Shown here one piece after another: positions 2,886-21,377 of a stretch of 64,000 bases of DNA. Origin of the DNA: an uncultured Chloroflexia bacterium (GTDB taxonomy: Bacteria > Chloroflexota > Limnocylindria > Limnocylindrales > CSP1-4); contig CAWEZH010000002.1 of assembly GCA_963813535.1 (NCBI GenBank), forward strand, positions 160,001 to 224,000. The letters are read 5' to 3'. Position numbers and translations under genes: made by a program. Position 1 is the stretch's first letter. The number at the start of each line of letters is the position of its first letter. The notes under the pieces were generated by a model. The model worked only from the letters and a program-made list of their open reading frames with translations, did no database searches and was not told the origin of the DNA.

Positions 2886-4080
2886 TCTCGTCGTCCGCGT
2901 CTACAACGTTCGCTTCGGTGACGCCATCCTCGTGTCCATCCCGGAGAAAGCGGGCGGGCACGATGTCGAGCGCACGATCCTCTTCGACTTCGGCAACGCG
3001 CTGAAGAAGGCTGGCGGGGTCGATGCGGTCTTCGAGCCCGTCATCGACGACCTCAAGGCCAGGCTCGGCGGGAAGCCCCTCGACCTCTACGTGATGACCC
3101 ACGAGCACCTGGACCACGTTCAGGGCCTCTTCTACGCCAAGGAGGAGCTCAAGAAGTCCATCAAGGCGAAGCAGGTCTGGTTGACCGGGTCGGCGGCGCC
3201 GACCTACTACGACACGCACACCAAGGCGAAGAAGCGGAAGAAGGCGGCGCTCGCGGCGCAGCGGGCGACGACCGCCCGGCTCCGGACGCTCTCGCGGCTT
3301 TCACCGTTCGCTGCGATGCTCCTGGCGAACAACGACGTGCGGACGACGGCGAAGTGCATCGACTTCCTACGGAACGGGCTGGCCAAGCCCGCCGACGTGC
3401 ACTACGTCGACCGGACGACCGATCTGAGCACGCTGCAGCCGGCGAAGGCCGCCAAGGTAACGCTCTGGGCCCCGGAGGAGGACACAGCCGACTACTACGG
3501 CAAGTTCGAGGCCTTGGCCTCAAGCCTGCGGATCGGGGATTCCACCGACTTCGATGACCTCGATCTGGGGCTCCGGGACGTCAAGGAGCTGGAGCTCCCG
3601 CAGCCGCCGCGCGGGGTCGATGCCGGATCGTTCTACAACCTGCTCGACGTCCGCCATTCGAACTCGGCATCGAACCTTCTGAACATCGACCAGGCGTCCA
3701 ACAACACCTCCATCGTGACGCTCATCGAGTGGAAGGGTTGGAAGCTGTTGTTCACCGGTGACGCCGAGAAGCGCAGCTGGCGGCAGATGGACAAGCTCGG
3801 GCTCGTCCAGCCGGTCCACTTCCTGAAGGTCAGCCACCACGGCAGCCATACCGGCATGCCACCGGGCGAGATCCTGGACAAGCTCCTCCCCATGTCGGCG
3901 CCGGCCGGCACTGGGCGGCCACGGGCGGCAGTGTCGACGTTCCCCGGCAACTACGACTCCGTGCCGAACGAGAGGACGCTGATCGAGCTGCGGAAGCGCA
4001 CGGATCTGAAGTCGACGCTCGACCTCACCCAGAACGAAGTGTTCGTGGAGTTCAAGTTCCCGTCGACCGGCCCGCAATAG
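2878..4080 (+). CDS. MBL-fold metallo-hydrolase (ComEC/Rec2-like)
   Basis: NVRFGDAIL, THEHLDH, NNTS, LLFTGDAE, KVSHHGS. Start overlaps upstream stop (ATGAGTGA). Confidence 0.9.
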   Translation: MSDLVVRVYNVRFGDAILVSIPEKAGGHDVERTILFDFGNALKKAGGVDAVFEPVIDDLKARLGGKPLDLYVMTHEHLDHVQGLFYAKEELKKSIKAKQVWLTGSAAPTYYDTHTKAKKRKKAALAAQRATTARLRTLSRLSPFAAMLLANNDVRTTAKCIDFLRNGLAKPADVHYVDRTTDLSTLQPAKAAKVTLWAPEEDTADYYGKFEALASSLRIGDSTDFDDLDLGLRDVKELELPQPPRGVDAGSFYNLLDVRHSNSASNLLNIDQASNNTSIVTLIEWKGWKLLFTGDAEKRSWRQMDKLGLVQPVHFLKVSHHGSHTGMPPGEILDKLLPMSAPAGTGRPRAAVSTFPGNYDSVPNERTLIELRKRTDLKSTLDLTQNEVFVEFKFPSTGPQ

Positions 4081-5223: not shown

Positions 5224-5302
5224 CCGTCGATCGGGTTCCACGGTTGTCGGGGTGGGTACCATCGAACGAGAACGGCCTCGACTGACAGACGGGGGAGGAA
5301 CC

Positions 5303-7093
5303 ATGGCAGACGTCCGAGGCAACCCCTGGGAACACGATCCAGGCCCACCCTCGGGGAGCGGCTGGGCGGAGGTCTTCGCCGATACCCCCAACTATCGCGG
5401 ACTCGGCAACGAGGTCGTCGGGCGCGAAGCGTTTCGCTGGCACCACGGTCCGATGTTCTACCGCGGTCGCCTGGACGGTTCCGCCAAGGTCATGGTGGTC
5501 GGGCAGGAGGGTGCCCAGGACGAATCGCTCGCGCACCGTTCCTTCACCGGCGGGACCGGTGCCCGGATGCAGCATCTGCTGCGGTTCCTCGGTCTCGATC
5601 GTTCGTACCTGTTCGTGAACTCGTTCGTCTACCCGATCTTCGGCCAGTACACGCTCGACCTCCGGAAGCTCGCCCAGGATCCTCGATCGCCGATCGTGAG
5701 CCACCGCAACCGGATCTATGACAAGGCGGTCGTCGATGGCGACGTGCGCCTGGTCATCGCGGTCGGTCGTGCGGCGAAGGAGTCCGTATCCACATGGATC
5801 GAGTCGCACGGAGGGACGGCCCAACCCGAGGCCCTGCACACCGCGACGCTGGGCACCTTGCCGAACCGGGTTCGAGTCGTGGGTGTGGTGCATCCGGGAA
5901 GCGCGTCGGGGGGCTCGACCAGCGCTATCAAGGCTGACTTCGTCCGCGCCATCGGCCGAATCCGCGACTGGCTGCAGGCCGACGCGGGCTGGTTGCCCGC
6001 CGATCCCGGCATGACGCGGAACCTCACCGCATCCTTCCCGTATTCCTCGGCCCCGATCCCGTACCGGGACTTCCCGTTCGGGACATGCCCGCGCCTCGGT
6101 CGGGGCGGGACGTCAAGCAACCGCAGCGACGACCAGCGAGCGATCCGCCTGTTCTCGGCAGCCGGCAAGTACAACGCCGCAGGGGCCCACCTGACCGATC
6201 CGTCGTCGGCGACTGGGACCAACCAGGGGTACGACGACGACCCGGGCGACCTGCCGTATGAGCCGCCGCGCGCCAGTCCGCTCGCCTTCGACGCTGGCCC
6301 GCCGACCAACTTGGCGCGCCTGTTGATGGGGGCCGAGGCGGGCTTCGAGTGGCCTGACTTCGCCTCGCTCGGCGTAACGGCGCACCCGTCGTTCGGCGTC
6401 GGACCGATCTATCGCGGCCGGTTCGGAACCCTGAGCCTCGTCATCCTTGCCGATCAGCGGTCCGCGGACGACACATTCAGCGGCCGAGCGCTCACTGGCG
6501 ACGCGGGTCAACGATTCCAGGGCGTCCTGCGTGCGGCCGGGCTGACGAAGCGCTACCTGGTCATCCGCACGCTGCCCGTCGACACCATGGATCTCAGCGC
6601 GGCCAAGCGCTTGTCGTTGGTCGATCACCCCAAGGTGCGGGCGATGCATCGCGAGCTCCTGAGCCGCGTTCGGTCCGCGAACGGCGGGGTCACCGCGCTC
6701 CTCGCGATGGGCCCCGGCGCCCGGCGGCTCGCCCCGAATGTCGTCCCAGCCGGGCTCGACGTGATCGAGCTCGCAGCGCATGGGGAACCGGGATTCCAGG
6801 CGTCCTGGCAAGCGGCACTGGCGCAGCTCGCGGGGCGCACCTACACCAAGGACGTTGCCAATCCGAGCTTCGATGCCCCGACCACCCGCAGTCAGGTCCC
6901 ACGGATCGATCTGCCCTATGGCACGCCCCGGTGGGTCGGGAGCTCGGGGGATCGAGGCGTACGGCCGATGGACACCGACATCGACAAGCCAACGCCGGAC
7001 TATCTCAAGCTGTTCCTGCCAGCCTGGGTCGCGGGTCTCGCGGCGGCGCCGCTGAGCCCGGCGGAGCAGACCGCGGCCGACCAGCTCAGCTGA
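5303..7093 (+). CDS. Uracil-DNA glycosylase superfamily protein with two tandem UDG-like domains
   Basis: RBS GGGGAGG. Domain 1 VMVVGQEGAQDE..RSFTGGTGARMQHLL..VHPGS; domain 2 LVILADQ..RALTGDAGQRFQGVL. Confidence 0.75.
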   Translation: MADVRGNPWEHDPGPPSGSGWAEVFADTPNYRGLGNEVVGREAFRWHHGPMFYRGRLDGSAKVMVVGQEGAQDESLAHRSFTGGTGARMQHLLRFLGLDRSYLFVNSFVYPIFGQYTLDLRKLAQDPRSPIVSHRNRIYDKAVVDGDVRLVIAVGRAAKESVSTWIESHGGTAQPEALHTATLGTLPNRVRVVGVVHPGSASGGSTSAIKADFVRAIGRIRDWLQADAGWLPADPGMTRNLTASFPYSSAPIPYRDFPFGTCPRLGRGGTSSNRSDDQRAIRLFSAAGKYNAAGAHLTDPSSATGTNQGYDDDPGDLPYEPPRASPLAFDAGPPTNLARLLMGAEAGFEWPDFASLGVTAHPSFGVGPIYRGRFGTLSLVILADQRSADDTFSGRALTGDAGQRFQGVLRAAGLTKRYLVIRTLPVDTMDLSAAKRLSLVDHPKVRAMHRELLSRVRSANGGVTALLAMGPGARRLAPNVVPAGLDVIELAAHGEPGFQASWQAALAQLAGRTYTKDVANPSFDAPTTRSQVPRIDLPYGTPRWVGSSGDRGVRPMDTDIDKPTPDYLKLFLPAWVAGLAAAPLSPAEQTAADQLS

Positions 7094-7095
7094 CC

Positions 7096-10000
7096 ATGCC
7101 CGCTGCACCGCTTCCCCGCTATGGACTGCGCGGGCGGGTGGTCACGATGAACGCAGTCCGCGACGTCGTCGCGGACGGCATCGTGTGGGTCGCCGACGGC
7201 TCGATCAGCGACGTGACACCGGCGAACCAGACGCCGGCCGCCCACGCCGGGTCTCCGGTCGTCGCCACGGCCGGCACGATCTACCCGGGCATGATCGAGC
7301 TCCACAACCACCTCGCCTACAACACGCTGCCGTTGTTCAGGATCCCGCGGCTCTACACGAAGCGAGAGGAGTGGCAGGGTACCCGCGGGTACCGACGGTA
7401 TGTCAGCGGCCCCGCCGGGGTCGTCGCGTCGCTGCCGGACTTGATCCGGGCGACGATCCGCTACGTCGAGTGCAAGAGCCTGATCGCGGGCACGACGACA
7501 TCCCAGGGGCTGACCCTGCGCGCGGCCCCGATCAAGCACCTCTACAAGGGCATCGTCCGCAATGCCGAGCAACCGGACGCGGCCGGCCTGGACGCGGCGC
7601 GACCCAAGATCGGCGACGTGACCCCGGAGGGCCGTGAGTCGTTCCGCAAGTCGCTGGCTGGCAAGGGTGCCCGGATCGTCCACCTGGCCGAGGGGCTTCC
7701 GACCTCGAAGGCCCACGACCACTTCACCGACCTCCAGGCGCCCAACGGCACGTGGGCGATCGGGCCGAAGTTCGTCGGCATCCATTCGACGGCTCTCACT
7801 CCGTCCGACCTCGCCATCGTCGACCAGCTGGGCGGATCGATCGTCTGGTCGCCGTTCAGCAATCTCGCCCTGTATGGCGGGACGACCGACGCCAAGACCG
7901 CCATGGATCTCGGGATCAAGGTCGCCCTCGGCTCTGATTGGTCGCCGACCGCGAGCAAGAACCTGCTTCATGAGCTCAAGGTCGCGCGCATCTGGAGTGA
8001 CGATCAGCAGCTCGGCTTCACGGATCGCCAGCTCATCGAGATGGTGACCGTGACGCCCGCGGAGATCCTCGGCTGGCACGGTCGTCTGGGCTCGCTCGAG
8101 CCTGGCAAGCTCGCCGACATCACGGTCGTTTCCGGCAAGACGGGCGAGCCGTATCGCCATCTCGTCGACGCGACCGAGTCGGACATCCGCGTCGTCGTCA
8201 TCGGTGGGATCGCCCGCTACGGGACGCCCGCGATGCTGGCGAGACTCAGCCCTGTCGATGAGCAGGCCGACGTCGCCGGCAAGCCTCGGGCGTTCCATCT
8301 CGACGTGCACGATCCCGATCCGGTCCTGGGTCCCATGGGACTCACCGACGCGACCGCGACCCTAGCCGATGCGCTCGCGCACATGCCCGAGCGCGCCGCG
8401 GCCATCGGGTCCGTCGAGCTCGGTGTCGTTGCCGCCCAGGCCGTGGCCGGCGCGGACGCGGACGAGCGCTGGTTCCTGGAACTCGACCAGCCACCCATCG
8501 CCGGCGTCTCGGCGACCCTCTTCGACGGCATCGCCCCGGCATTGCTGGACGTCGTGATCGGCGCCGAGAGCTTCGCGTCGATCGCCATTGCCCTCAAGCT
8601 CGATCCCCTAGCGACCGAAGGCGACGACGCGTTCTTCGACATGCTGGCCAACCTCGAGAACCTCCCGGCAGTCCTGCGGGACACGCTGCCGGGCCGCTAC
8701 GGCGAGGTGCCGCGGGCTCCCACAGAGGGGGTCGGGCTCGAGGACGATGACCTGGCGATCGCACCTCTACCGCTGTCGGAGTTGCTCGAGCGTGCGGGCG
8801 ATCTGACCCTCGCCGATCGACGGCTCATCGTCCAGCAAGCGATGGTCCTGCTCGACCAGGCCTACGTCCATCTGCCGATGAAACGGGCGAGGTACGCGGC
8901 TGATCCGCTGCAGCGCCTGCGACTGATGGCGCACCGGCTTGAAGCTCTGGCGCCGACCGACGAGCTCGGCCCCGAGAGCCTGTTCCATGAGGAGCTCATC
9001 GAGATCTTCACCGCCCTTCGTGACCTGCACACCCACTACGTCCCGCCCGAGCCGTACCGGTCGCACACGGTGTTCCTGCCGTTCCTCGTCGAAGAATGCA
9101 CGCGGGCGGGTCGGCTGCAGTACCTCGTGTCCAAGGTCGCCCACGGAGCCGAGCTCGACCCGTCATTCGCACCGGGGGTGGAGGTGACCCACTGGAACGG
9201 AACGCCGATCCGACGGGCCATCGAGCGCAATGCCGAGAATCAGAGCGGAGGCAACCGGGCGGCTCGGATGGCACGCGGGCTCGACGCGCTGACGATCCGC
9301 ACGCTCGGCCGCACAGCGCCACCGGATGAGGACTGGGTCGACGTGGCCTACCTGACCCCAGAGGGTGGCGAGGGACTGGTTCGCACCCGCTGGAGCACCT
9401 ATCAGCCGCTCGAGCCGTCGCCCTTCGGGGATCTCGAGCAGGCATTCGCCAGTGCGGTCCCGGTCAGGTCCGGCAATCGGGGCCGGCTCGGCGCGCTCGG
9501 TGTCGACGACCAGACCGCGACCGTCAACCTGGTCCGGCGCGACCTCTACGCTCGAGGCTGGCAGCGGACGGCAGCCTGCCGGGTCCGACGAACTGGTCAC
9601 CGAGCTGCCCGGGATCCTGCGCGCAAGGATCAGGGGGACGAGTGCGGGGGACGTCCTGCACATGCGGATCTTCACGTTCGTGGTCCCGGATCCCGGGGCG
9701 TTCGTCCAGGAGTTCGTGCGCCTCGTGCAACTCAGACCCAGCGTCGGCTTGATCGTCGACGTCAGAGGCAACGGCGGCGGCGACATCCGCGCTGCGGAGC
9801 GCCTGCTGCAGGTCATGACGCCCCATCCGATCGGACCCGAACCGACGCAGTTCATCGTCAGCCCATTGGTCCGTCGCCTGTGCATGGCCAACCAGGGTGG
9901 CCCGATCGACCTCACGTCCTGGGCGCCCTCGGTCGTCGATGCGGTGGAGACCGGTGCCACCTTCTCGACTGGGTTTCCGATCACGTCGGCAGTGGACGTG

Positions 10001-10648
10001 AATGACCTCGGCCAGGGCTACTACGGTCCGGTCGTCCTGATCACGGATGCCCGCTGCTACAGCGCCACGGACATCTTCGCCGCCGGATTCCAGGACCACG
10101 ACATCGGGCGGATCGTCGGGGTCGCCGAGCGTACAGGTGCCGGCGGAGCGAACGTGTGGACGCACCCTCTGCTCCGGGCGCTGCTACCCGACCAGGACAA
10201 TCCGCTCAAGGAGCTTCCGAGACAGGCATCCTTCCGCGTGGCGGTACGCCGCACGACGCGCGTGGGGTCGCATGCCAGCGAGCTCCTCGAGGACCTGGGT
10301 GTCTTCGCTGACACGGTGCATGCCATCACGGACGCCGATCTGCTCGAGGACAATCGGGACCTGATCGAAGCCGCCGTTGCCGCGATGCAGGGGCGCGCGA
10401 CGAGGCGACTGGTGGCCGACGTGTCGCCGGCGGGCGATGGCGTGACGATCGACGTGGCCACGACCAACCTGGACCGGGTCGATGCCTATCTCGACGGTCG
10501 CCCCGTTGCTTCCGAAGACGTGCAGGACGATGAGTGCACGTTCGTCCTTCCGCACGCGATGATCAGCAACGGCGGGGAGGTGCGGCTGGAAGGGTTCCAA
10601 GGTGGCACGCTGAGCGCCGCGCGGCGACTCATGATCCCGATCGGATGA
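7096..10648 (+). CDS. Amidohydrolase (deaminase-like)-S41 peptidase fusion, frameshift ~9560
   Basis: ELHNH, HLAEG, GIH, LGSDWSP, GKLADI in N-half. S41 motifs IVDVRGNGGG, CYSATDIF, TGAGGANVW in ORF 9365-10648. The S41 N-terminal helices (YVHLPMKRA) are in frame with the amidohydrolase. Confidence 0.8.
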
Positions 10649-10683
10649 GGACCGTCGACCACCGCGCCGACCTGATGGGGGCA

Positions 10684-11022
10684 TCAGCCCTCGGGTTCGG
10701 CCTCTTCGTCGCCCCACGATCTTCCCTCGCCGATCCGCGTCCGGCGCGATCGCTGGAATGCCGCGGACTGGCGCAGGTTCCATGCCTGCACGCCCATTCG
10801 GGCGACCTCGTCAAGACCGCCCAGGTCGTCCGGAACGGGGCCTTTGAACATCCGCACCGTCTCGGGCGTTTCGGCCGACCCGGCGGTCCCGCTTTCCGCG
10901 AGCTCGACGACCAGTGCCCGATCGCCGTATGCCTGGACCGGGCGACCGCCAGCGGCGGCGAGCCACGCCCGAACATCGTCGGGAGAAGCGGCGGGGGCCA
11001 GGACCACGAAGTACTCGGCCAT
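10684..11022 (-). CDS. Small protein homologous to the N-terminal (pro)domain of the divergent metallopeptidase
   Basis: VQAYGDRALVVEL / GLDEVARMGVQAWNLRQS..GEGRSWGD align by eye with LHRYGSRVLIGEV / GLSEAEAVGLAAWDLRVS..LDGQRWDA of the 11068 gene. Confidence 0.75.
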   Translation of the reverse strand: MAEYFVVLAPAASPDDVRAWLAAAGGRPVQAYGDRALVVELAESGTAGSAETPETVRMFKGPVPDDLGGLDEVARMGVQAWNLRQSAAFQRSRRTRIGEGRSWGDEEAEPEG

Positions 11023-11067
11023 CGATCACACGTTCTGCCGGACCACGGGACGCTCGGAGGATAGGAC

Positions 11068-12527
11068 ATGGCGAAGCGTGACGAGATCGCCAAGCAGGGA
11101 CTCATCATCCTCGACGCCAAGGGCGTCGCCGACATCCGCGGGACGGCGGGGCGGCTCGAGGACGTCGGTGTGAGCGTCCTCCACCGCTACGGTTCGCGGG
11201 TCCTCATCGGTGAGGTTCCACCAGCGGGTGGCCGGGGCGTGGCTGCCGAGCGGGGCGTGCGCTCGTTCCACGCGGGCGCCGTGCGTGCCAAGCCTCGTGG
11301 CCTGAGCGAGGCGGAGGCCGTCGGGCTGGCGGCGTGGGATCTGCGTGTTTCGCGGCGATACGCAACCGCCAAGGCGAAGCGGCCACTCGACGGTCAGCGC
11401 TGGGACGCCGCGGGCGTCACCCCACTCATCCCGCCAGACGGCCCGCTCATGACCCATGTCGACGATGAGGGGCCGGCCCGCGCGTTCCGCGCGGTGGGCG
11501 ACGAGACCAGCGCCTATCTCATCGGCGCCGTCGCCGTGGGAGCTCATCCTCGTCGAGGGTCCCACAGCGGACCTGCAGTTCAGCGAGGCCGAGCGCACGA
11601 AGGTCGTCGCCGAGGTCCAGGAGGGATTGACCTGGCTCGGCACCCGGGAACCCAAGGCCGGTGTCTCCTTTGCCTACGACATCCGGATCGTGCAGGTGGA
11701 TCGAGCCCCGAACCCGGCGCTGAGCGGCTACGAGCCGCTCGAATCGCACTGGCGCGACCCGGCAATGGCGAAGCTCGGGTTCGCCCCGAACTTCGGGGGC
11801 GTCAAGGAGTACGTCAAGGCCATCCGCGCCAACCTCGCCACGAAGTGGGCCTACGTCGCGTACTTCACGAAGTACCCGGTCCAGCACTTCGCCTATGCCT
11901 CCAAGCCGCGCCTGGTCATGCACTACGCCAACGACGGCTGGGGGCCCGACAACATCGACCGCGTCTTCACGCACGAGACCGGCCACATCTTCGGCTGCCC
12001 GGACGAGTACTCGGCAAGCAACTGCTCGTGCACCACGAAGGCGGGCTATCTGCGTGAGGTCAACGGCAACTGCCAGAACTGTGCGACGTCCTTCACGCCG
12101 TGCCTCATGGCGGGGAACACCTGGGAAATGTGCGCCTTCACGCCTGCCCACCTTGGCTGGCGCGACACCGATGGTGATGGCGCGCTGGACCCGGTCGATC
12201 CGGTCGGGAACCCGAACCCCCTGATCGATCTGGGCGGGTTCTGTTCGCGGTTCCCGTTCATCTGCCGGCTGGTCGGCCTCGGCGCCACAGCCGGCGCTGT
12301 GGCCGGCGACGATCCGGGCTGGCGGTCCGGCGTCACCGGTGCGATCCCCGCCGAGCCGCGGGGCGAGGCGGTCCCGGTCGAGTTGCTCCGCCAGGTCCTG
12401 ACCGCGGATGAGATGGCGCGCGTGGAGGCCGCGGTCCGTGCCGAGGAGGATCTGCTACCTCGAGGCCCTCGAGCGCAAGCTTCGGACCGCAGCGGACCAG
12501 ATCGCCCGCGAACGAGCCAGTCGCTGA
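11068..12527 (+). CDS. Metzincin-type zinc metallopeptidase (HExxHxxGxxD) with N-terminal prodomain; frameshifts ~11541 and ~12452
   Basis: RBS GGAGG. HETGHIFGCPDEY, Met-turn CLM, Cys-rich segment, DTDGDG Ca-binding-like motif. Reconstructed end YLEALERKLRTAADQIARERASR* at TGA 12525-12527. Confidence 0.75.
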
Positions 12528-13024
12528 TGGATACCGCGGAGATCGAGCAAAAGGTCCTGGCGACGTCGGCGAGTGGTAATGACGCTCAGCTCGGCGGACC
12601 GGTCCGCGTCCTCGACACGGCCGAGGGCGCCGACGGTGGCTCGACGTACCAGGTGTCGGCGTCCCTGCTCGTACCGATCGACGAGGACGATCCGGACCTG
12701 ACCGGGGTGTCCATCGCGGTCCCTGTGACGGCCACCGTCGAGATCGACGACGACGGGGCGATCGTCGGGATCGATGTGCCGGTCGACGCGGCCGCCCAGC
12801 GCGAGGCGAGGTCGTTCACTCGCAACCTGATCGCCCGTGGGGCTGTCAGCGGGCTGGCGGCCAGCGGACCCGTGCGACGCGGTCCTGGGCTCGCCACCCG
12901 CCCGACGCACGAACTGACAGTCGACGAATTCGGTCGGCGGGTGATCCGCCGGACGGGATTTACCGCGACTAGCGCGCCGGCCATGCCGGAAGACACGCGC
13001 GCCCACGATGGAGACAGCCCGTAG
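12527..13024 (+). CDS. Small protein homologous to the C-terminal domain of the downstream metallopeptidase
   Basis: TGATG coupling at 12525-12529. EARSFTRNLIARGAV..PTHEL..RRTGF vs QARAFARSLVANGDV..PSHEI..VRVGF in the 13041 gene. Confidence 0.7.
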   Translation: MDTAEIEQKVLATSASGNDAQLGGPVRVLDTAEGADGGSTYQVSASLLVPIDEDDPDLTGVSIAVPVTATVEIDDDGAIVGIDVPVDAAAQREARSFTRNLIARGAVSGLAASGPVRRGPGLATRPTHELTVDEFGRRVIRRTGFTATSAPAMPEDTRAHDGDSP

Positions 13025-13040
13025 CGGCAAGGAGCGTCCC

Positions 13041-14531
13041 ATGGCGACCATCACGTACGTCCCGAACGACCCATTGGCGAGTGGCGGACCACCCACCAGA
13101 TCGACGAGGGCCAGCAACTACCCACGCGGTGACATCGCCAAGTTCGATATCCAGCCGACGGCGGTCGCCGGCAAGTTCGACCCGCACACGCCGGAGTTCC
13201 AGTACTGGCAGGCCAAGCTTGGGCTGATCGCCGGGCTGCGTGCCTGGCGCCAGATCGATGGCCGCTTCATGCGACGCTGGTTCGGGGACCAGAACCAGCT
13301 AGCCGTGCGCACTGACGCCGGCGACGACCTGAACGCGTTCTACGATCGCGACAGCCTGCAGTTCTTCTCGCACACGTTCGGCGGGGTGACAGTCAACTCC
13401 GCCGAGAGCGTGGACGTCGTGACGCATGAAGAAGGTCATGCCTTCCTCGACGCCATCCGGCCGGACTTCTTCGATGTCCCGTTCATCGAAGTCGGAGCGC
13501 TCCACGAGGCGTTCGGCGACTGCATGGCGATCGTCACCGCGCTCGAGGACCGCGCCATCCGGGACGCCGTCCTGGCGTCCACCCCGGACCTCGCGGCCAA
13601 CCACTTCGTGGAAAGCCTGGCCGAGGCGCTCGGCGACGCGATCGCGCGGGAGTTCGGAGCGGGCAGCGTCGACGTCGGAGCGCTCCGCCATGCCCTTAAC
13701 ACGTTCCAGTACGCTGATCCGACCTCACTGCCACCGGATGCCCCCGCGGACCAGCTCTCCGGTGAGGTCCACAGCTTCGCCCGGGTGTTCAGTGGCGCTT
13801 TCTACGACGTCATCCGGAACGTCTACATCGGCGGCACGCGGAAGGATTCGCTCGCGCTGCGGAAAGCCTCCCGGACGGCGGGCAAGCTGCTAGTGGCAGC
13901 CATCCGGATCGTGCCCGCCACGCCGAGCACGTTCCGCGGCGTCGGCCAGCGGATGCTCCAGGTCGACGTGTCGAAGAATCGCGGAGCCAATACGGCCGCG
14001 ATCACAGAAGCGTTCGCGGGTCATGGGATGTCACTGCCCGCCCCGGCCACGTCCCTGCCGGTCCCCCTGCCCAGGCAGACCCGCGCCGGGGCGGCTCCGG
14101 AGCTACGCCGGCGGCTCGCGGTCCCCCCAGGCACCAGGATCGAGATCACACCCGTCGATTCCGACCTGCATGGCGAGATCGCCCACGTCAGCGCGTACCG
14201 GCCGTTGCCCCTCGATGGCGCCGGGCTTCAGGGCGTCCGGATCATGGTGCCGGGCATCGCGCGTGTGGCCACCACCCGCCGCGGCCGGTCGATCACCGGC
14301 GTCCTGGGTGAGGTCACCTCGTCCGAGGGTGATGCGGCGGTGCAGGCCCGTGCCTTCGCGCGCTCGCTGGTCGCGAACGGCGACGTGCGCACCGCCCCAC
14401 GGGCGGCCCGACGGCTCGCCGCCGCTCCGCAGCCGCCGACGGCTCGGGTGCCGCACAAGCCCAGTCACGAGATCCGACTCGTCGGCGGCGAGCCGACGCT
14501 CGTCCGGGTCGGCTTCTCCCACCGGCACTGA
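13041..14531 (+). CDS. M36/M4-like zinc metallopeptidase, no signal peptide
   Basis: RBS AAGGAG. NAFYDR, VVTHEEGH, LHEAFGD, EVHSF. Confidence 0.85.
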   Translation: MATITYVPNDPLASGGPPTRSTRASNYPRGDIAKFDIQPTAVAGKFDPHTPEFQYWQAKLGLIAGLRAWRQIDGRFMRRWFGDQNQLAVRTDAGDDLNAFYDRDSLQFFSHTFGGVTVNSAESVDVVTHEEGHAFLDAIRPDFFDVPFIEVGALHEAFGDCMAIVTALEDRAIRDAVLASTPDLAANHFVESLAEALGDAIAREFGAGSVDVGALRHALNTFQYADPTSLPPDAPADQLSGEVHSFARVFSGAFYDVIRNVYIGGTRKDSLALRKASRTAGKLLVAAIRIVPATPSTFRGVGQRMLQVDVSKNRGANTAAITEAFAGHGMSLPAPATSLPVPLPRQTRAGAAPELRRRLAVPPGTRIEITPVDSDLHGEIAHVSAYRPLPLDGAGLQGVRIMVPGIARVATTRRGRSITGVLGEVTSSEGDAAVQARAFARSLVANGDVRTAPRAARRLAAAPQPPTARVPHKPSHEIRLVGGEPTLVRVGFSHRH

Positions 14532-14534
14532 CCG

Positions 14535-16902
14535 TCAACCGGCCTCCGGCTCCAGCCGCATGGCCGGGATGGCCGAAGAACTGGTAGGCCATGTAGGTCG
14601 ACGACGTCGTCTCGGGGGTGTCGCGGAATGCGGCGCGCTCCGTGCGCATGATCTCGGCGGGTGCCTCGCCACGCATCGCCCGCTCGTAGAAGCGGATGGC
14701 GATGTCTCGAGCGAGTCGGTCGTCGATCGACCACAGCGGTGCGATGACGCCTGCTGCGCCGGCGAACAGGAAGGCCGCCGCCAGACCGGCATGATCGCCG
14801 AGGAGTTGGCTGCCGCGGCCGACCTGGCATGCGTTCAGGAAGACGAACGGATGGCCGCGCAGCGGGATCCCCTTGACGGCCAGGGGATCGAGGGCAGAGC
14901 CGTCGACGAGGATCAGGCCATCCCTGGCCTCCTCGGCCTCGTAGGTGCCGTGCACGGCGAAGTGGATGACATCGGCGGCCGGACGCCCCCTCAGGAGGTC
15001 GAGGATGCCGCCGATCGTGGCATCCACCGGCATCCCCTCGTAGATGCGCACGATGTCAGCGGCCTCGGCCTCCGCCTCGGCAAGGCGCTGCCAGCCTGGC
15101 AGCTCGTAGACGCCCGATACGGCGGCGACACCCTGGACGGCCACGCTCATGGGCGGCGGGAGGGCGGGCCGCCGCTGGCCGAGGACCCAGCGCCCGACCG
15201 TCGCCTGGGCGGCAAGGAAGGGCGGGAGGTCGGGATCGAGCGGCGGATCCACGACGGCGAGCTCCCACGGGACGTACGGCTCGGCCGAGAGGAACAGGAT
15301 GGACGGCGGCCGGGCGCCATTCCGTGTCGCGATCTTTGACAAGGCGTTCCAGAACTCGATCGGCAGCTGCTCGGCGATGGTCAGCCCGATCCCGCGCAGG
15401 GCGACGAACTGCGTCGGACGACCCTCCACCTCCTGCATCTCGTCGACGATCCGACGGAGGTCCGCCGCAGGATCGCCGCCGATATCGATACGGATGGGGG
15501 CGTCCGGCATGTCGATCGTCGGATCGGCCGCGAGCAACTGGACGAGGAGGCCACCGCTCGCCTCGGATTCCGCACGCTCGATCCGTACGGTCAGGTCGGG
15601 CGCCACCTGGCCAGCCGGCAATGACAGGTCGACGCCGGGGGCAGGTGGCTGGGCCGGAGCCGACGCCAGGAGATCGGCCGACCGGACCAGGGCGACCGAA
15701 CGCACGGCGAGACCGATCGGATTGCCGTCGATCGAGTACATCGCGCGGATCGAGGTCGACATGACCGGTGCAACCTGGGCATCCGGCACGAGCTGGATCG
15801 TCACGGACGGGTAGGGGGCCTCCGCTGTGACCGGCAGGTCGATCCGCCAGGACGCGCCGGCGTCCGCGAGCCGGAGGCCGTCGGCAACGAGTTGGATGGT
15901 CATCGTGTACGCGCCGACGCTCGATGGCGGTCGGTGGAGCGCCTCCCCGACGACGCGTGCGTCCGGGCGGTCGGCGAGCCCCACGACGAGATCGAACGGC
16001 TGCTCGGCGACGACGGCATCCGGACAGGACAGCCGGGCGTAGGTCGTCCGCGGCGGATCAGCCTCGCTCCCGATCGTCGCGCCGCCGGCGCCGATCGTGG
16101 CACCGGGCCCGACGGCTTCGGGCTCAGGCACGGTCGTCGGCCCGGCGGGTCCACCGGGGCTTGGCGGGGGGCTTGGGGGGCGTGCGGCGGGCGGACCGGC
16201 TGCCGCTTACGGCCGCGCTCGGATGCCGCCTGGGTCAGGCCGCCGACGACCTGGTTGAGCACCCCGCTGATCGCCCCCGGGATCGCCGTCCAGAGGACTG
16301 CCGAGGTCGGCGTGATCCCCGTGATGCCGGCCTGCTGGGCGAACAGCAGGAGGCCGATCCCTATCACCACGCCACCCACGACGGCGAGCACACCGTTGCG
16401 GCGCCCCACAGTCAGGAGCGCACGGAGCGCCATGAGGACGCCGACCACGATGATCCCGATCGCCACGAATCCGGCCGGGGTCCCGAGCGGCGAGCGGCCG
16501 GTCACGTTGACCCAGCCGTGGACCTGGCAGACATCGGTCGCCGCGGTGACTTCGTACAGACCCGACCCGAACCGCGCGTAGTCGGAGACGGGAAGCGTCT
16601 CCGGACCATTCGGTGGTGGGGGCGATCGGCTCGTCGGCGATCGTCCAGGTGGTCGGCCAGACGCTGATCGCGATGGTCGCCCGGGTCACCGGTTCGAGGG
16701 ACTGGCCGAACACCCGTGCCACGGCATCGGCGTCGATCGGGATCGCCCGATCCGGACTGTCGGCATCGCCGAGGGAGTGCCGGTCGATGAAGACGACACA
16801 CTGTCCGATCGTCTGGGCACTGACCGGCGCGGAGAGGATCATGACGATGGCCACGCCGAGCAGGAGAGCGGCGGCGGACCGCACGCGGGGACGGGGCCGC
16901 AT
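14535..16902 (-). CDS. Membrane-anchored CHAT (caspase-like) protease: signal peptide, extracellular domain, TM helices, Pro linker, C-terminal CHAT; about three frameshifts
   Basis: Joined from ORFs 16207-16902, 15900-16505, 14314-16131 and the 14535 stop. VPWEL, VIHFAVHG, FVFLNACQVG, IAPLWSIDD. Confidence 0.7.
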
Positions 16903-16918: not shown

Positions 16919-19270
16919 TCATCGCCAGCTCGGGTCGATGCTGTCTCCCCCTAAGGACTTTGTTAGGTCTTCTTCCTTCCCGGTGGCCAGAACACGCACC
17001 AGGATGTGCCACTCGTCTCCGACGCGGCGGTAGAAGGCGATCCGGTCACCTTCGGGCGAATAGACGGGACCGCCCTCGTCGGCCGAATCGTCGGTGATTC
17101 GGCTCTCCTCCCTCGTTTCGACGTCGATCGACCAGATGTCCCGTCTCGCGCGAGGCTCGTTGCGCGTGAACACGAGTCGCCCGCCGTCGGGGTGCCATCT
17201 CGGGTTGCGGTCGACGGTACCGCCGGACGTCAAAGGCTCGGGATCGCGACCTGGTACCCAGATGTAGATCGATAAGACATCGTCATTGCTATCGCGGTTC
17301 GACGTGAACGCCATCCGCGCGCTATCCGGGTCCCAAGCCGGTGAGCTGTCATCGGCGCCTCGTTGCCCCACGACCGGTTTCGGTAGACCAGCCCTGAGCG
17401 AGGAAACGCGCCAGATGTCGTTCAGCTGCTTGTTCGTCTCGTCGCGGTCGCTGTTGAAGTAGATGAACTTGTTCCGTGCGAAGTCCGGGACGCGGTCGTC
17501 CGCAGGGCCACTCGTCATCGGGGTCTGATTCCCACCATCCTTGTCCATGGTGTAGATGTCACCGGTGCCGTTGTTGATCCGCGTGAATGCGATGTGCGTC
17601 CCATCGGGCGACCACCTCGGCCACCGGTCCGGAACGCTGTTATCGGTGAGCCGGTCCGGCTTGAGGGTGTCCGGATCGATGAGGTAGATCTCGGAGTCCT
17701 CGCCGTCGGTACCGTCCGGGTCGAACTCGAACAGGATCCCCGTTCCGCCCGTCGGTGGAGCGATGCTCGCTGACGCGGAAGCGTCGCTTGGGGGACCACC
17801 CGTCGGTTGGGTATCCGATGCCGAGAAGGAGGCGGATGCAGTGCCGGAGCCTGGGCTCGCGCTTGCCCCGCCCCCGCCTCCGAAGATGTTGACGGCCAGG
17901 AGGAGCACAAGCAGGACGGCTCCGCCGCCGGCCGCGAGGATCGCGATCGGCCGCCAGGGCGGCGGCGGCGGTGGCGGCACCGGCGTGGGACGCTCAGGTT
18001 CCGGTGCTTCAGGCTTCGGAGGTTTGAATAGCTCCTCGAGTTCATCCTGGCTGAGCTCGGGGACTGTCTCCGGTGGCTCCGGTTCGGGAGCTTCCGGCTC
18101 GGGCGGCGCCGGTGGTACGGCGGTACCAGTATCGGCGGCGGGGGCGCCTCGACCACTGGGGCCGCCGCGACGTTGAACAGCACGCCATCCGGTGTCTGGA
18201 GGTACAGGACCGGCGTGCCCCATTCCAGCGTGTCCTCGAAGGCGGTGGCGAGACCCTTCCGTGCCTCGGTGAGCGCCGTGTCGACCGGGATGCCCCGCGC
18301 GACCGCGCCATAGAACGATCGGCTCAGTTCGATCGCGGCCTCATCGGTGATCTCGTACTGCATCGCCACGACGGCCGGAGTGCCCTTGCGGACGAGCGTG
18401 CCCGCCGTGCTCGAGAACACGTCCGTGACGTCGCTTCGACCGGTGTCGCACGCGTTGAGGACAGCGAGGCGAAGCGGTTCGTGGTCCCCGAGGATGCGTC
18501 CGAAACTCGTGGCCCGCTTGTAGTCGGCCTTGCCGTCGGGGCGGGCGAAGGCAACGATGCCCTCCTTGCGGTTCTCGTCGAAACCGCCGTGGCCGATGAA
18601 GTGGAGGATGTGCCAGGGGCCCTCCCACAATGCCTCCTGGAAGTCCTGCCACGTCTGCCCTGGGATCCAGGTGAGCTCGATCAGGCCCTTGGCCTGTATC
18701 GACTCCATCGCGGCGGTGAGACGGGTTCGCTCTCGCTCCACATCCAGCCCGTCGAGGTCCGAAGGACTGACCGCGACCGCCAGGATGCGGATCGGCGGCG
18801 TCACGAGGAGCGGCTCCATGCTCGACGGCAATCGGGATGTAGCGGACCAGCGGCGAACCGGTCGAGAGCGTGACGAAATCGCCGCGAACCGGGTCGAAGA
18901 GGTACTCCCACGGGAGCGCCGCGAGTTCCGCGTCGTCGCACCGGAACTTGATCCGCATGCCGGACTGCTGGTGCTTTGCCTCCTGGCGGCTCGCCTCGTA
19001 GCGCGACAGGACGTCGCCAGAGAACAGTGCGGTCCACAGTTCCTGGCCGAACTCCTGGACCGTGCGGCTCTCCGGTGATGAGATCCGGCGGCGCGTCCCG
19101 CTCGAGCGGAGGAGCGCGATCTGGAGGGCCTGCAGCCGGTTGGTGAGCGTCGGCTGGTCGAACGGGAAGCGCATCGATGACGTCGCCTCGCCAGCCGGCG
19201 ACCGCACCTTGACGGTGTACGACCCCGCTTCGCCGCCAGTGACATCGATCTCGAAATCGAGGTACTGCAC
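16919..19270 (-). CDS. CHAT protease with Pro-rich linker, single TM and C-terminal TolB/PD40 beta-propeller; two frameshifts
   Basis: GTG 19270 after GGGGAAGG. LPWEYL, HILHFIGHGG, VLNACDTG, EWGTPVLY; TM IAILAAGGGAVLLVLLLAV; repeats PRWSPDG, PAWDPD, PRWHPDG, PVYSPEG. Confidence 0.8.
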
Positions 19271-19370
19271 TGGTCGCCTTCCCCGCGCGCCCGATGTCAA
19301 GGCTACCCCGGGTCGCAAGCAGATCCGTTACAGGGGCGGTGCTATCGTGGCCACTCAGCGAGGTGGAGGC

Positions 19371-21377
19371 ATGCCTGCGGACGGATCCGGCTCCACGTCC
19401 TTCGTCGTCATCCGGACCGATTGGTCGGTCCTGACGGCCCTCCGGGCGCTCGACGCGACTGACGCGACCCACGTGATCATCGCGCACCACGGCGATCGTG
19501 GCGACGAATACCACCTGTTCACGGCCGACGACATCTTCGCCGAGCTCCAGACTCATCCGACCGAGGCCAACCTCACCTCAGTGCTGCCTTTGGCCGAGTG
19601 GCCGCCGACGCCGACGATCGCGCCGGGCGATGCGATCGGCGATCGGACGATGGCGGTCGTCCTCGATCGTGGCCGCGCGGTCGGTTTCATCGATCGCAAC
19701 GCCCCGAGCGTTCCAGGCCCGACGGCAGAGACCGTCCAGCCGGGTGATGCCGGCGGCCCCGGTGGGTGGACTGGCGAGGAGGTCGTCGAGCCGGTGCGAC
19801 GTGGCGGTGGGCACCGCGCGAAGCCGCCCGCATCGGCCGGCGATGGCGAACCTGTCGCTGCGAATGGCGGACCCGACGCCGAGGATGGCGGGACCGAGCG
19901 ATCGCTCGAGGCGGAATTTCCTGACTCGGTCGTGGTCGACACGGTGGAGTGGCTGCTGGTCTCGATCGTGAACGCGAAGCCGACAGCGTCGGGTCTCGCC
20001 ATCGAGGTCGCGGCGGGCGAATCGATCGACGTCCTGGTCCAACCGCGGCGCGGGTTCAGCGTGGAGGGTGACGCTCAGGGCACGCTCAAGGTGCCGGCCT
20101 CCGGCGAGAGCCTGCCGCTCCAGTTCAAGGTCAAGGCCCTCGACGAGGGAAAGGGCCTGATCCGCGTCCTGGCCTTCCACCTCGGCGAGCCGCTCGGCGT
20201 CATCACCCTCGAGCCGACGGTGAAGGCCGCGTCCAGGAGCCGGGCTCGCGGACGGACGACCTCGGCGCCTGCAGCGAGGAAGGGCCAGGCGCTGACGGCG
20301 CCGAGCCCGCAGGTCCCGGACATGTCGTTGTTCATCGAGGAGCGCGAGGCCGGCGGAGCCCTCGAGTTCGTCATCCGCCTGACCGCCACGGACCCGGCAC
20401 TCGACCTGAACCTTCGTCCGTTCGGGCCGTTCCGTCTCGAGGTCGAACCCGCCGAGTTCTTCGGGACGTTCTTCCAGGAGATCGACGAGCTGCCCCTGGC
20501 CACGAAGGAACAGCGCGAGGTCGCCGAGCGACGGTTGGCGGCCAAGGGTGCGTACCTGACCGAGTCCCTGATGCCCCCGGAACTGCGTGAGGCGCTCTGG
20601 CTGGTTCGCGATCGGATCGCCTCGGTCATCATCCAGTCCGAGGAGCCCTGGATCCCGTGGGAGCTCTGCCGCCTCATGGGCCGTGACGGCGATCGGGTGA
20701 TCGAGGGTCCGTTCCTGTGCGAAGCCTTCGCGGTCACGCGCTGGTTGCCCGGTGAGGGGTTCAAGCGCCCCCTCCGGCTCACCAACATGGCCCTGATCGT
20801 CCCGGCCGATTCCGGCCTGCCGCTCGCGCCCGAGGAACGCGACTTCGTCCTGTCGCTGGCCGGGGACGGTCGTGCCGTCACGGCGATCGATCCGAAGTTC
20901 GCCGACGTACAGGACGCGTTCGCGGCCGGCGTCTACGACGGCTGGCACTTCACCGGGCACGGCGCAGCGCGCGATTCGAACCCGGATCGTTCGTCGATCA
21001 TCCTGAGCGGCGAGGAGTCGTTCACGCCCGAGGACCTCAGTGGCCAAGCCGCGAACCTGGGCATCCCGCATCCGCTGATCTTCATCAACGCCTGCCAGGT
21101 CGGCCGCGGCGGGATGGGCCTGACCGGTATCGGTGGCTGGGCGCGACGCTTCGTGCAGACCGGGGCCGGCGCGTTCATCGGGGCGTACTGGTCGGTCTAT
21201 GACGTGTCGGCCTTCGCCTTCGCCAAGGAGGTCTATGCGCGGCTCCTGGACGGGATGCCGATCGGTGATGCGGTCCGCGAGGCACGCGCCAAGGTCCGTG
21301 AGGATGGTGACCCGACGTGGCTCGCCTACACCGTGTTTGCCGATCCGCTGGCCACCGTCGAGTCCGGACCGAGCTAG
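19371..21377 (+). CDS. Soluble CHAT (caspase-like) protease with possible degenerate CBS pair and beta-sandwich domain
   Basis: RBS GGAGG. IPWEL, GWHFTGHG, FINACQVG, FIGAYWSV, WLAYTVFADP. Confidence 0.85.
   Translation: MPADGSGSTSFVVIRTDWSVLTALRALDATDATHVIIAHHGDRGDEYHLFTADDIFAELQTHPTEANLTSVLPLAEWPPTPTIAPGDAIGDRTMAVVLDRGRAVGFIDRNAPSVPGPTAETVQPGDAGGPGGWTGEEVVEPVRRGGGHRAKPPASAGDGEPVAANGGPDAEDGGTERSLEAEFPDSVVVDTVEWLLVSIVNAKPTASGLAIEVAAGESIDVLVQPRRGFSVEGDAQGTLKVPASGESLPLQFKVKALDEGKGLIRVLAFHLGEPLGVITLEPTVKAASRSRARGRTTSAPAARKGQALTAPSPQVPDMSLFIEEREAGGALEFVIRLTATDPALDLNLRPFGPFRLEVEPAEFFGTFFQEIDELPLATKEQREVAERRLAAKGAYLTESLMPPELREALWLVRDRIASVIIQSEEPWIPWELCRLMGRDGDRVIEGPFLCEAFAVTRWLPGEGFKRPLRLTNMALIVPADSGLPLAPEERDFVLSLAGDGRAVTAIDPKFADVQDAFAAGVYDGWHFTGHGAARDSNPDRSSIILSGEESFTPEDLSGQAANLGIPHPLIFINACQVGRGGMGLTGIGGWARRFVQTGAGAFIGAYWSVYDVSAFAFAKEVYARLLDGMPIGDAVREARAKVREDGDPTWLAYTVFADPLATVESGPS

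Follow-up and report, generated by a model that had tools for sequence, protein, structure and literature searches.

We analysed a 64,000-nucleotide stretch of DNA, referred to here as the window, from an uncultured Chloroflexia bacterium (assembly GCA_963813535.1, contig CAWEZH010000002.1, positions 160,001 to 224,000 of the forward strand), focusing on a divergent gene pair. One gene of the pair encodes a small protein of 112 amino acids and the other a zinc metalloprotease whose N-terminal domain (N-domain) resembles the small protein. We refer to the small protein as the free copy and to the N-domain as the attached copy. The locus is laid out as follows, in positions of the window and with the basis of each assignment in brackets.

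10684-11022, minus strand: gene for the small protein, a free-standing paralog of the N-domain (open reading frame (ORF) of 112 amino acids and its translation; isoelectric point (pI) 4.6)
11023-11067, no strand: divergent intergenic spacer of 45 bp between the two start codons (sequence read directly)
11068-11541, plus strand: N-terminal part of the protease in frame 1, with its start ATG at 11068 (translation, hhalign, AlphaFold2 model of the ortholog P0036)
11541-11543, plus strand: first single-base insertion relative to the orthologs, from frame 1 to frame 2 (DNA alignment with the loci L005 and L006, translation)
11543-12455, plus strand: catalytic domain in frame 2 (translations, conservation, fold matches)
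11972-12010, plus strand: zinc motif HETGHIFGCPDEY (translation)
12453-12455, plus strand: second single-base insertion relative to the orthologs (DNA alignment)
12456-12527, plus strand: end of the protease in frame 3, YLEALERKLRTAADQIARERASR and then the stop codon (translation)

A GGAGGA sequence is positioned 8-13 nucleotides 5' of the protease ATG, and the TGA of the protease overlaps the ATG of the downstream gene. The first 158 residues of the protease (frame 1) terminate in ...AYLIGAVAVG, and the frame that contains the zinc motif opens at 11543 and begins LILVEGP. The attached N-domain occupies protease residues ~10-116 and is followed by a linker containing PPDG. The catalytic domain holds a cysteine-rich insert (CxC...CxxC) and a putative Met-turn (C-L-M), and the end in frame 3 is part of a long C-terminal helix (helix 433-480 in the P0036 model). 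Besides a ferredoxin-like core and two helices, the small protein has a conserved tail, RIGEGRSWGDEEAEPEG, with which it ends.

An earlier reading of this DNA (the original prediction) had described the pair as a free-standing copy of a metalloprotease prodomain encoded head-to-head with that protease, and had overlooked the frameshifts in the protease gene. In the orthologous loci L005, L006 and L014 the protease is one ORF of 480-481 amino acids, and the insertion at 12453-12455 joins the catalytic frame to the frame of the next gene in the assembly. Sequencing runs, which contain at most 29% of the words of the window, were used for the two indel sites only. At 11541 the sole bridging short-read contig (X2, a close relative, depth 3 of 3) is one base shorter, and a loose end of X1 at 11544 seems to be one base shorter as well, as read from 10 letters. 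At 12453-12455, two X2 contigs and one X3 contig, also from close relatives, are one base shorter. The related genomes are long-read metagenome bins with many split genes, and the same protease lies in five pieces in one of them (G024). Upstream, amidohydrolase and S41 peptidase domains are encoded by two overlapping ORFs (6931-10648, plus strand) that correspond to a single ORF of 1431 amino acids in L005; this unusual fusion protein directly adjoins the small gene, and its split is probably another assembly frameshift. Because the contigs from relatives lack the extra bases, and because the bins of relatives and the upstream gene are also split, we read both protease frameshifts as probable consensus errors. 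A 96% relative (L004) also has an extra base at the site aligned to 11541, with a different letter pattern in the DNA alignment, and this could reflect either a systematic long-read error at 11541 or a shared real change.

Sequence comparison confirmed the homology between the small protein, along its full length, and the N-terminal domain of the protease. By BLASTP, the small protein is 29% identical to the N-terminal part of the window's protease over 75 residues (E 2e-7) and 32% identical to the intact ortholog P0036 over 75 residues (E 8e-9). The Smith-Waterman score was 94, against 32.4 +/- 6.2 in 2000 shuffles (z 9.9), none of which reached 94 (the shuffle maximum was 80). An hhalign comparison of 33 small proteins with 109/121 protease N-domains gave a probability of 99.7% and an E value of 1.3e-26 over 105 columns, pairing small-protein residues 3-107 with protease residues 10-116. 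The by-eye alignment of the original prediction, which had placed the attached copy at residues ~10-118, is thus matched almost exactly by the profile alignment and withstood the shuffle control proposed for it, and the two genes do lie head-to-head with their starts 45 bp apart. The charge contrast that had been noted along with it, an acidic free copy and a basic attached one, is found in the window (pI 4.62 for the free copy vs 10.38 for attached residues 1-125) but not across the family, where free copies are mostly acidic (57/61) and 46 of 73 attached domains are acidic too. Because of the latter count the contrast is a feature of this clade and not general.

Free copies make up a large family of stand-alone proteins, whose age, wide distribution and own signature had not been recognised in the original prediction. 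A profile search of 1.84 billion cluster representatives recovered 746 free-family proteins at E ≤ 1e-3 (518 at E ≤ 1e-10), and the best 150 of the 746 are all 101-213 amino acids long with the domain at the C-terminal end. The small protein of the window has 32 close homologs (48-92% identity) and is an intact ORF in all relatives, and 24 columns are invariant among the 33 close homologs. The signature of the family is ...LFVDAW...R.GEGL.WDAPGFEPPD, after which the protein ends within ~10 residues, and all of 40 diverse members retain W81, R96 and W103 (window numbering). The attached domains share MAGD-I-x-I-x-E, H-x-Y-G-x-R-V-L-I and LGLEAF-x-LRQS...AKA-x-RPR-x-GE-x-WD. Free copies of different phyla are closer to each other than to their own attached domains.

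Neither the small protein nor the N-domain has a match in Pfam, NCBIfam or PADLOC (Pfam at E ≤ 0.1 and, for 40 diverse free members, at E ≤ 0.01), and neither the N-domain nor the free family (best E 0.1) has a match in a PDB sequence search. The model of the small protein, with a mean predicted local distance difference test score (pLDDT) of 77, contains the same elements as the N-domain plus a disordered tail. Its residues 1-60 match pro-subtilisin E (3whi_B) with Z 6.6 and a root-mean-square deviation of 2.5 over 58 residues. Other subtilase propeptides match with Z 6.0 (4zoq_A) and Z 5.0 (1v5i_B), and domain V of LepA/EF-G matches better (Z 7.8). We rejected a filing of the small protein under Inhibitor I9, given the missing profile match and the generic fold match. 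A third genome copy was also considered and rejected: a weak match of the small protein in contig C3 (E 0.036) and one in genome G022 (E 0.0012) were taken as noise, none of four hidden Markov models (HMMs) matching either at E ≤ 10. Some longer members of the free family (at L108 3710-4498, plus strand, and the proteins P0178, P0189, P0205, P0227, P0241 and P0258) have N-terminal extensions that resemble, by eye, signal, lipoprotein, twin-arginine or membrane-anchor sequences; the partner protease at L108 has no signal.

The protease carries the extended zinc motif HExxHxxGxx(H/D) of the metzincin clan. Across 82 homologs, H302, E303, H306, G309, D312 and Y314 are invariant or nearly so, as are the cysteines C319, C321, C335, C338, C345 and C355. 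M347, in the C-L-M triplet 35 residues past D312, is invariant in the same set and is the putative Met-turn; the residues that follow it (348-351) line the interface modelled below. The cysteine pattern suggests a structural metal site. In the AlphaFold2 model of P0036 (pLDDT 84, predicted template modelling score 0.86), the protein begins with a beta-alpha-beta-beta-alpha-beta N-domain (10-68) and two helices (81-103); a linker (104-153), disordered in part, leads to the catalytic domain (154 to ~400), and the long C-terminal helix comes last. Linker residues 133-144 are disordered, and PPDG is conserved in this clade. The closest folds to the catalytic domain are ADAM17, fragilysin, ADAMTS and the snake-venom enzymes/adamalysins (Foldseek E ~1e-3), and VIA aligned 158-235 residues to those metzincins with Z 8.5-10.8, with 109 chains at Z ≥ 8. 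Matches of the catalytic part to Reprolysin_5, Peptidase_M7, an M6 domain and snapalysin are below cutoffs and lie only around the zinc motif. We rejected a filing under M7 (snapalysin), as the scores are below the curated cutoffs: 15.6-18.8 bits vs 25 for Pfam Peptidase_M7 (PF02031) and 20-20.9 bits vs 300 for NCBIfam snapalysin (NF033628). The best PDB sequence match of the protease is HETGHVLGLPDHY of snapalysin (1c7k), at the zinc motif only (E 0.033). We read the protease as a member of an undescribed family, predicted from an Asp-metzincin-type motif (HExxHxxGxxD and a putative Met-turn) combined with the cysteine-rich insert.

A word-index search found 699 protease homologs among 8000 scored candidates. 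The layout of the family is a ferredoxin-like N-domain, a linker, the catalytic domain and a variable C-terminal module. This last module is swapped across the family, as seen at L049 7653-9761, L055 7980-10286, L047 7986-10238 and L108 4717-6846. Streptomyces proteases end in ricin-type lectin repeats (Pfam E 7e-71), those of Sphingomonas and Cyanobacteria in BTRD1-kind tandem repeats of ~45 residues followed by a Gly/Asp-rich tail, and the protease of an Acidobacteriota locus has Trp-rich propeller-like repeats; in the clade of the window the module is a single long helix. Look-alikes in the ESM Atlas, all labelled 'hypothetical protein', hint at further binding modules and served as leads only. 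A literature search on BTRD1 returned nothing relevant.

To follow the pair beyond the window, we took the co-occurrence check that the original prediction had suggested to a larger set of genomes. An initial narrow search found the protease in 7 of 301 genomes of the class and the small protein in 3 of 41 relatives, the window's own included in both, and the small protein initially seemed to be specific to one lineage. A scan of genome_contigs with the protease alignment then gave 252 related loci, of which the best 80 were kept for pairing counts. These span Chloroflexota, Acidobacteriota, Cyanobacteria, Nitrospirota, Nitrospinota and Planctomycetota, plus Actinomycetota (Streptomyces, Frankia, Arthrobacter and Actinokineospora) and Pseudomonadota (Sphingomonas, Rhodoplanes and Caballeronia). 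The six-frame ORFs of the 80 loci were searched with an N-domain HMM and then with a free-family HMM. An attached domain is present in all 80 proteases, and a separate second copy was found at 64 loci with the N-domain HMM and at 6 more with the free-family HMM, bringing the total to 70 of 80. The reverse test, starting from free copies, found a catalytic domain within 4 kb at 48 of 53 loci, ~15 of which repeat loci of the 80-locus set, and four of the five misses are cut by a contig end.

The order of the two genes varies. They are divergent, with the free copy upstream, in the clade of the window; in Planctomycetaceae, Dehalococcoidia, Rhodoplanes, Nitrospira and Arthrobacter the free copy immediately precedes the protease on the same strand, and in Streptomyces, Sphingomonas, Frankia, Cyanobacteria and Acidobacteria it lies just 3' of the protease, on either strand. 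A clustering by longest ORFs, which is noisy in this high-GC DNA and includes antisense ORFs, showed no other cluster of neighbouring genes shared by more than 10 of the 80 loci; recurring neighbours are lineage-specific and varied.

A quick IQ-TREE search (134 rows by 132 columns, the small number of columns limiting resolution) divided 62 free from 72 attached copies by a single branch, with a Shimodaira-Hasegawa-like approximate likelihood-ratio test value of 92. None of 500 label shuffles on the tree needed as few changes, and the free and attached sides contain matching sub-clades. As far as these sequences speak, the free copy is the product of one ancient duplication and has been co-inherited with the protease; it is not a local or recent duplicate.

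A complex of the two partners was modelled from P0036 catalytic residues 145-410 and the small protein of the window, each with its own alignment. Each of the three runs gave an interface score (interaction prediction score from aligned errors, ipSAE) of 0.93, whereas the best of three controls scored 0.00; the runs had at least 94% of their contacts in common, and the partner pLDDT was at least 79. In the calibration, 58 of 80 solved complexes and 2 of 110 mismatched pairs attain the mark, counts that are only a rough guide here, own alignments having been used. The model's memory of a similar solved complex is unlikely to lie behind the score, because the PDB search found no solved homolog by sequence. 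On the protease side, the modelled interface comprises helix 176-192, strand 198-205, residues 290-298, H302, D312, 314-317 and 348-351. On the side of the small protein it comprises strand 27-33, helices 72-93 (A80, W81, R84) and tail residues 96-105 (RIGEGRSWGD). All three invariant residues of the free family (W81, R96 and W103) fall inside it, and the mean top-residue frequency is 0.61 at its 33 positions vs 0.44 at the 79 others.

The attached domain can be compared with known zymogens through the full-length model. Its best VIA match is the ADAM17 zymogen 9o58_A (Z 10.8, 235 residues, model 1-375), and profragilysin-3 (3p24_A) aligns with Z 9.6 over 215 residues (model 8-374). In both, the prodomain region co-aligns with the N-domain. 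Catalytic-only TACE chains reach Z 9.1-9.5 over 173-182 residues, mostly model 152-375 or 152-377. The predicted structure therefore fits an N-domain that sits roughly at the position of a zymogen prodomain, with a small margin.

We propose that the zinc protease has a dedicated regulator in the small protein encoded next to it, which most likely acts as an inhibitor in trans and arose by ancient duplication of the N-domain. We consider this reading probable; it builds on the observed homology, conserved pairing, co-inheritance and modelled interface. In the model, the two helices of the free copy (A80, W81, R84) would rest against the first catalytic-domain helix (176-192), its strand 27-33 would run along protease strand 198-205, and its tail, R96-x-G98-E-G-x-x-W103-G-D, would cover the active-site cleft at H302, D312, Y314 and the wall after the Met-turn, blocking access of the substrate. 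A partner in contact with two zinc ligands and with the wall that follows the Met-turn would close the active site. The attached N-domain would presumably lie on the same surface in cis as a prodomain-like lid, and the free copy would then serve as a lid in trans once the enzyme's own N-domain is displaced or cleaved, giving the producer a second lock for its protection. We infer that binding inhibits the protease and that the attached domain is a prodomain removed by cleavage, and likewise the timing and the place of action. The original prediction had offered a trans-acting inhibitor, a decoy or a homotypic adaptor, and had named a model of the small protein with the catalytic domain as a check. 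With the high score of that model and the pairing across phyla, the inhibitor is the role that is favoured, inhibition itself being the inferred part.

The same contact would also suit a trans-acting chaperone (foldase) for the catalytic domain rather than a standing inhibitor. The predicted binding covers a large, conserved surface, the pairing is conserved, and subtilase prodomains both fold and transiently inhibit their enzymes (PMC6993865, in the accessible part of the paper). However, the attached N-domain in all 80 proteases could do the folding, and the most conserved element of the free copy is the tail modelled on the zinc ligands, which suits blocking more than folding; we regard this role as unlikely. 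We find it more unlikely that the free copy acts as a decoy that promotes activation, by displacing the attached N-domain or by capturing a released one. Competition of the two homologous domains for one surface is probable, and an acidic free and a basic attached copy could favour mutual contact in this clade, but the modelled contact covers the active site (H302, D312), so that displacement would leave the site blocked, and the charge contrast does not hold across the family, as described above.

More doubtful still is a homotypic adaptor, in which the free copy would pair sheet-to-sheet with the attached N-domain and recruit or oligomerise the protease. The fold is ferredoxin-like, ACT-like ferredoxin folds often pair sheet to sheet, and the island around the cassette includes three CHAT proteases and a TCAD7 domain, a setting in which adaptor logic is common. 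The conserved residues of the free family, however, lie in the model in the helices and the tail that face the catalytic domain and not at the sheet edges, and in other clades the pair has ordinary, varied neighbours. Finally, a gene this short, with no known family, might be a decaying partial duplicate without function. Conservation contradicts this, with an ORF intact in all relatives, the 24 invariant columns and 746 representatives noted above, co-phylogeny with the protease and fixed C-terminal ends, and we consider such a relic highly improbable.

Several points weigh against an inhibitor in trans. As assembled, the N-domain (frame 1) and the part with HETGHIFGCPDEY (frame 2) are separate ORFs. 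The complex score is the model's own confidence and may partly reflect the inferred homologous arrangement in cis, and the shared surface in cis is itself suggested by homology alone. The lead of the zymogens over the catalytic-only chains is ~1 Z unit, a tie by VIA's own rule. In fold, the free copy is generically ferredoxin-like, subtilase propeptides (Z 5-6.6) matching it no better than EF-G/ACT-like domains (best Z 7.8). The protease already has its own N-domain, so it is not obvious why a second lock would be needed. By eye, neither protein of the window has a signal peptide, yet many relatives have lectin-type C-terminal domains. Lastly, ten of the 80 protease loci have no free copy. Three of these (L054, L075 and L081) are short or cut by a contig end, and the others are four Actinokineospora loci, one Frankia locus, L032 and L037. 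The last two are close relatives of the clade with 8 kb of flank on each side, and because they show no free copy despite full flanks, the protease can exist without its partner.

A further interpretation is that the pair comprises a protease toxin and a prodomain-derived immunity protein or antitoxin, the metzincin being an effector directed in conflict against other cells or the producer itself. The detached prodomain copy would then be an antidote that keeps the protease harmless in the producer, with an anchor outside the membrane in some lineages. The features that speak for it are the swappable ricin, BTRD1-like and beta-propeller-lectin-like C-terminal modules, the island context, a second pair in the operon, the export-like N-terminal extensions of some longer free copies and an Imm21 immunity-family gene beside one pair. 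We regard this interpretation as possible, though on balance doubtful. If true, it would reveal a self-derived immunity principle for metalloprotease effectors.

Positions 1-21400 of the window form an island rich in proteases and conflict-type domains. Besides the genes described above, it contains the following.

1125-2882: HETAH protein of 586 amino acids, without any family
2857-4077: MBL-fold protein with an LmuA-like PADLOC match (E 6.5e-18)
5252-7090: UDG-superfamily protein
14317-16131, minus strand: CHAT protein
16919-18220: PD40 repeat protein
17515-19242, minus strand: CHAT protein
19062-21374, plus strand: CHAT protein with TCAD7 and DUF7363

In PADLOC, neither member of the divergent pair had a match, nor did P0037 or P0038. 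The second free/attached pair lies in the same operon and consists of a 165-amino-acid protein (12527-13024, plus strand), whose ATG overlaps the stop of the metzincin gene, and a 507-amino-acid HEEGH protease (13008-14531, plus strand) with weak M4/M36 matches. Homology links the 165-amino-acid protein to ~120 residues at the C-terminal end of the HEEGH protease. For the L005 orthologs of this pair, BLASTP gave E 6e-6, and an hhalign comparison of 7 vs 5 orthologs gave a probability of 96.7% and E 3.4e-10 over 109 columns. The two genes also adjoin in L038 and L041, ~6 kb from the metzincin. At one other locus (L049, Streptomyces sp. NRRL B-1140), an Imm21-family gene (10293-10808, plus strand; Pfam E 6e-61) lies directly 3' of the free copy.

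Among known systems, the ADAM17 and profragilysin-3 zymogens come closest by structure to the full-length model, in alignments that reach the prodomain region. The sequence identity is only 9-15%, however, and here the prodomain-like unit exists both attached and separate, as a co-inherited gene. To our knowledge, the prodomains of ADAM17 and profragilysin-3 are larger, and separate genes for them are not known. The ADAM17 prodomain bound to the mature enzyme has a solved structure (8snm, according to the available part of its record). Snapalysin (M7) and other Asp-zincins share the zinc motif HExxHxxGxxD-x-Y with the protease (HETGHVLGLPDHY in 1c7k vs HETGHIFGCPDEY here), but the match to snapalysin is confined to the motif, and the present family is much larger, with an N-domain, a cysteine-rich insert and variable C-terminal modules. 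The archaemetzincin consensus is HEXXHXXGXXHCX4CXMX17CXXC, as given in the accessible part of PMC3427221. Archaemetzincins have four conserved cysteines past the zinc motif, to which the invariant cysteines of CxC...CxxC...C-L-M compare here, but the third ligand is Asp in the present family vs His, and the spacing differs. No archaemetzincin appeared, by sequence or fold, among the PDB, Foldseek and VIA matches listed.

Stand-alone homologs of protease pro-regions have been described for other catalytic types. Spi is a propeptide analogue encoded beside the cysteine protease SpeB in Streptococcus pyogenes (PMC2873492, citing Kagawa et al. 2005, in the part of the text available). As in the present pair, a small homolog of the pro-region adjoins the protease, and protection of the producer has been proposed (PMC2873492, same part), but SpeB is a C10 cysteine protease of unrelated fold, whereas the present pair involves a zinc metzincin, occurs in many phyla and is known from sequence and a model. 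SUB1-ProM of Plasmodium is a stand-alone subtilisin propeptide-like protein and a potent, selective inhibitor of SUB1 (PMC6993865, accessible part). With SUB1-ProM and I9-type inhibitors, as far as the same source describes them, the free copy shares the arrangement of a stand-alone prodomain-like protein, here of a generic ferredoxin-like fold, that is syntenic with the protease; it differs in having no Pfam match, Inhibitor_I9 included, in a metalloprotease as target and in a modelled inhibitory element that is a C-terminal loop on the zinc site. Of the features of the class of Spi and SUB1-ProM, homology to the N-terminal region of the cognate protease and conserved linkage with it are found here, with binding and inhibition predicted from the model. 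In the openly accessible literature, with MEROPS outside the search, we found no description of a prodomain-like stand-alone partner of a metzincin or other metalloprotease.

A detached prodomain copy that guards a protease is known for cysteine and serine proteases, and the case of a metzincin would apparently be new. The analysis defines two large unannotated protein families and proposes how they work together, and pairs are found in culturable Streptomyces, Arthrobacter, Sphingomonas and Frankia. The tail R-x-G-E-G-x-x-W-D, modelled on the zinc site, would be a concrete inhibitory element and could guide the design of selective metzincin inhibitors.

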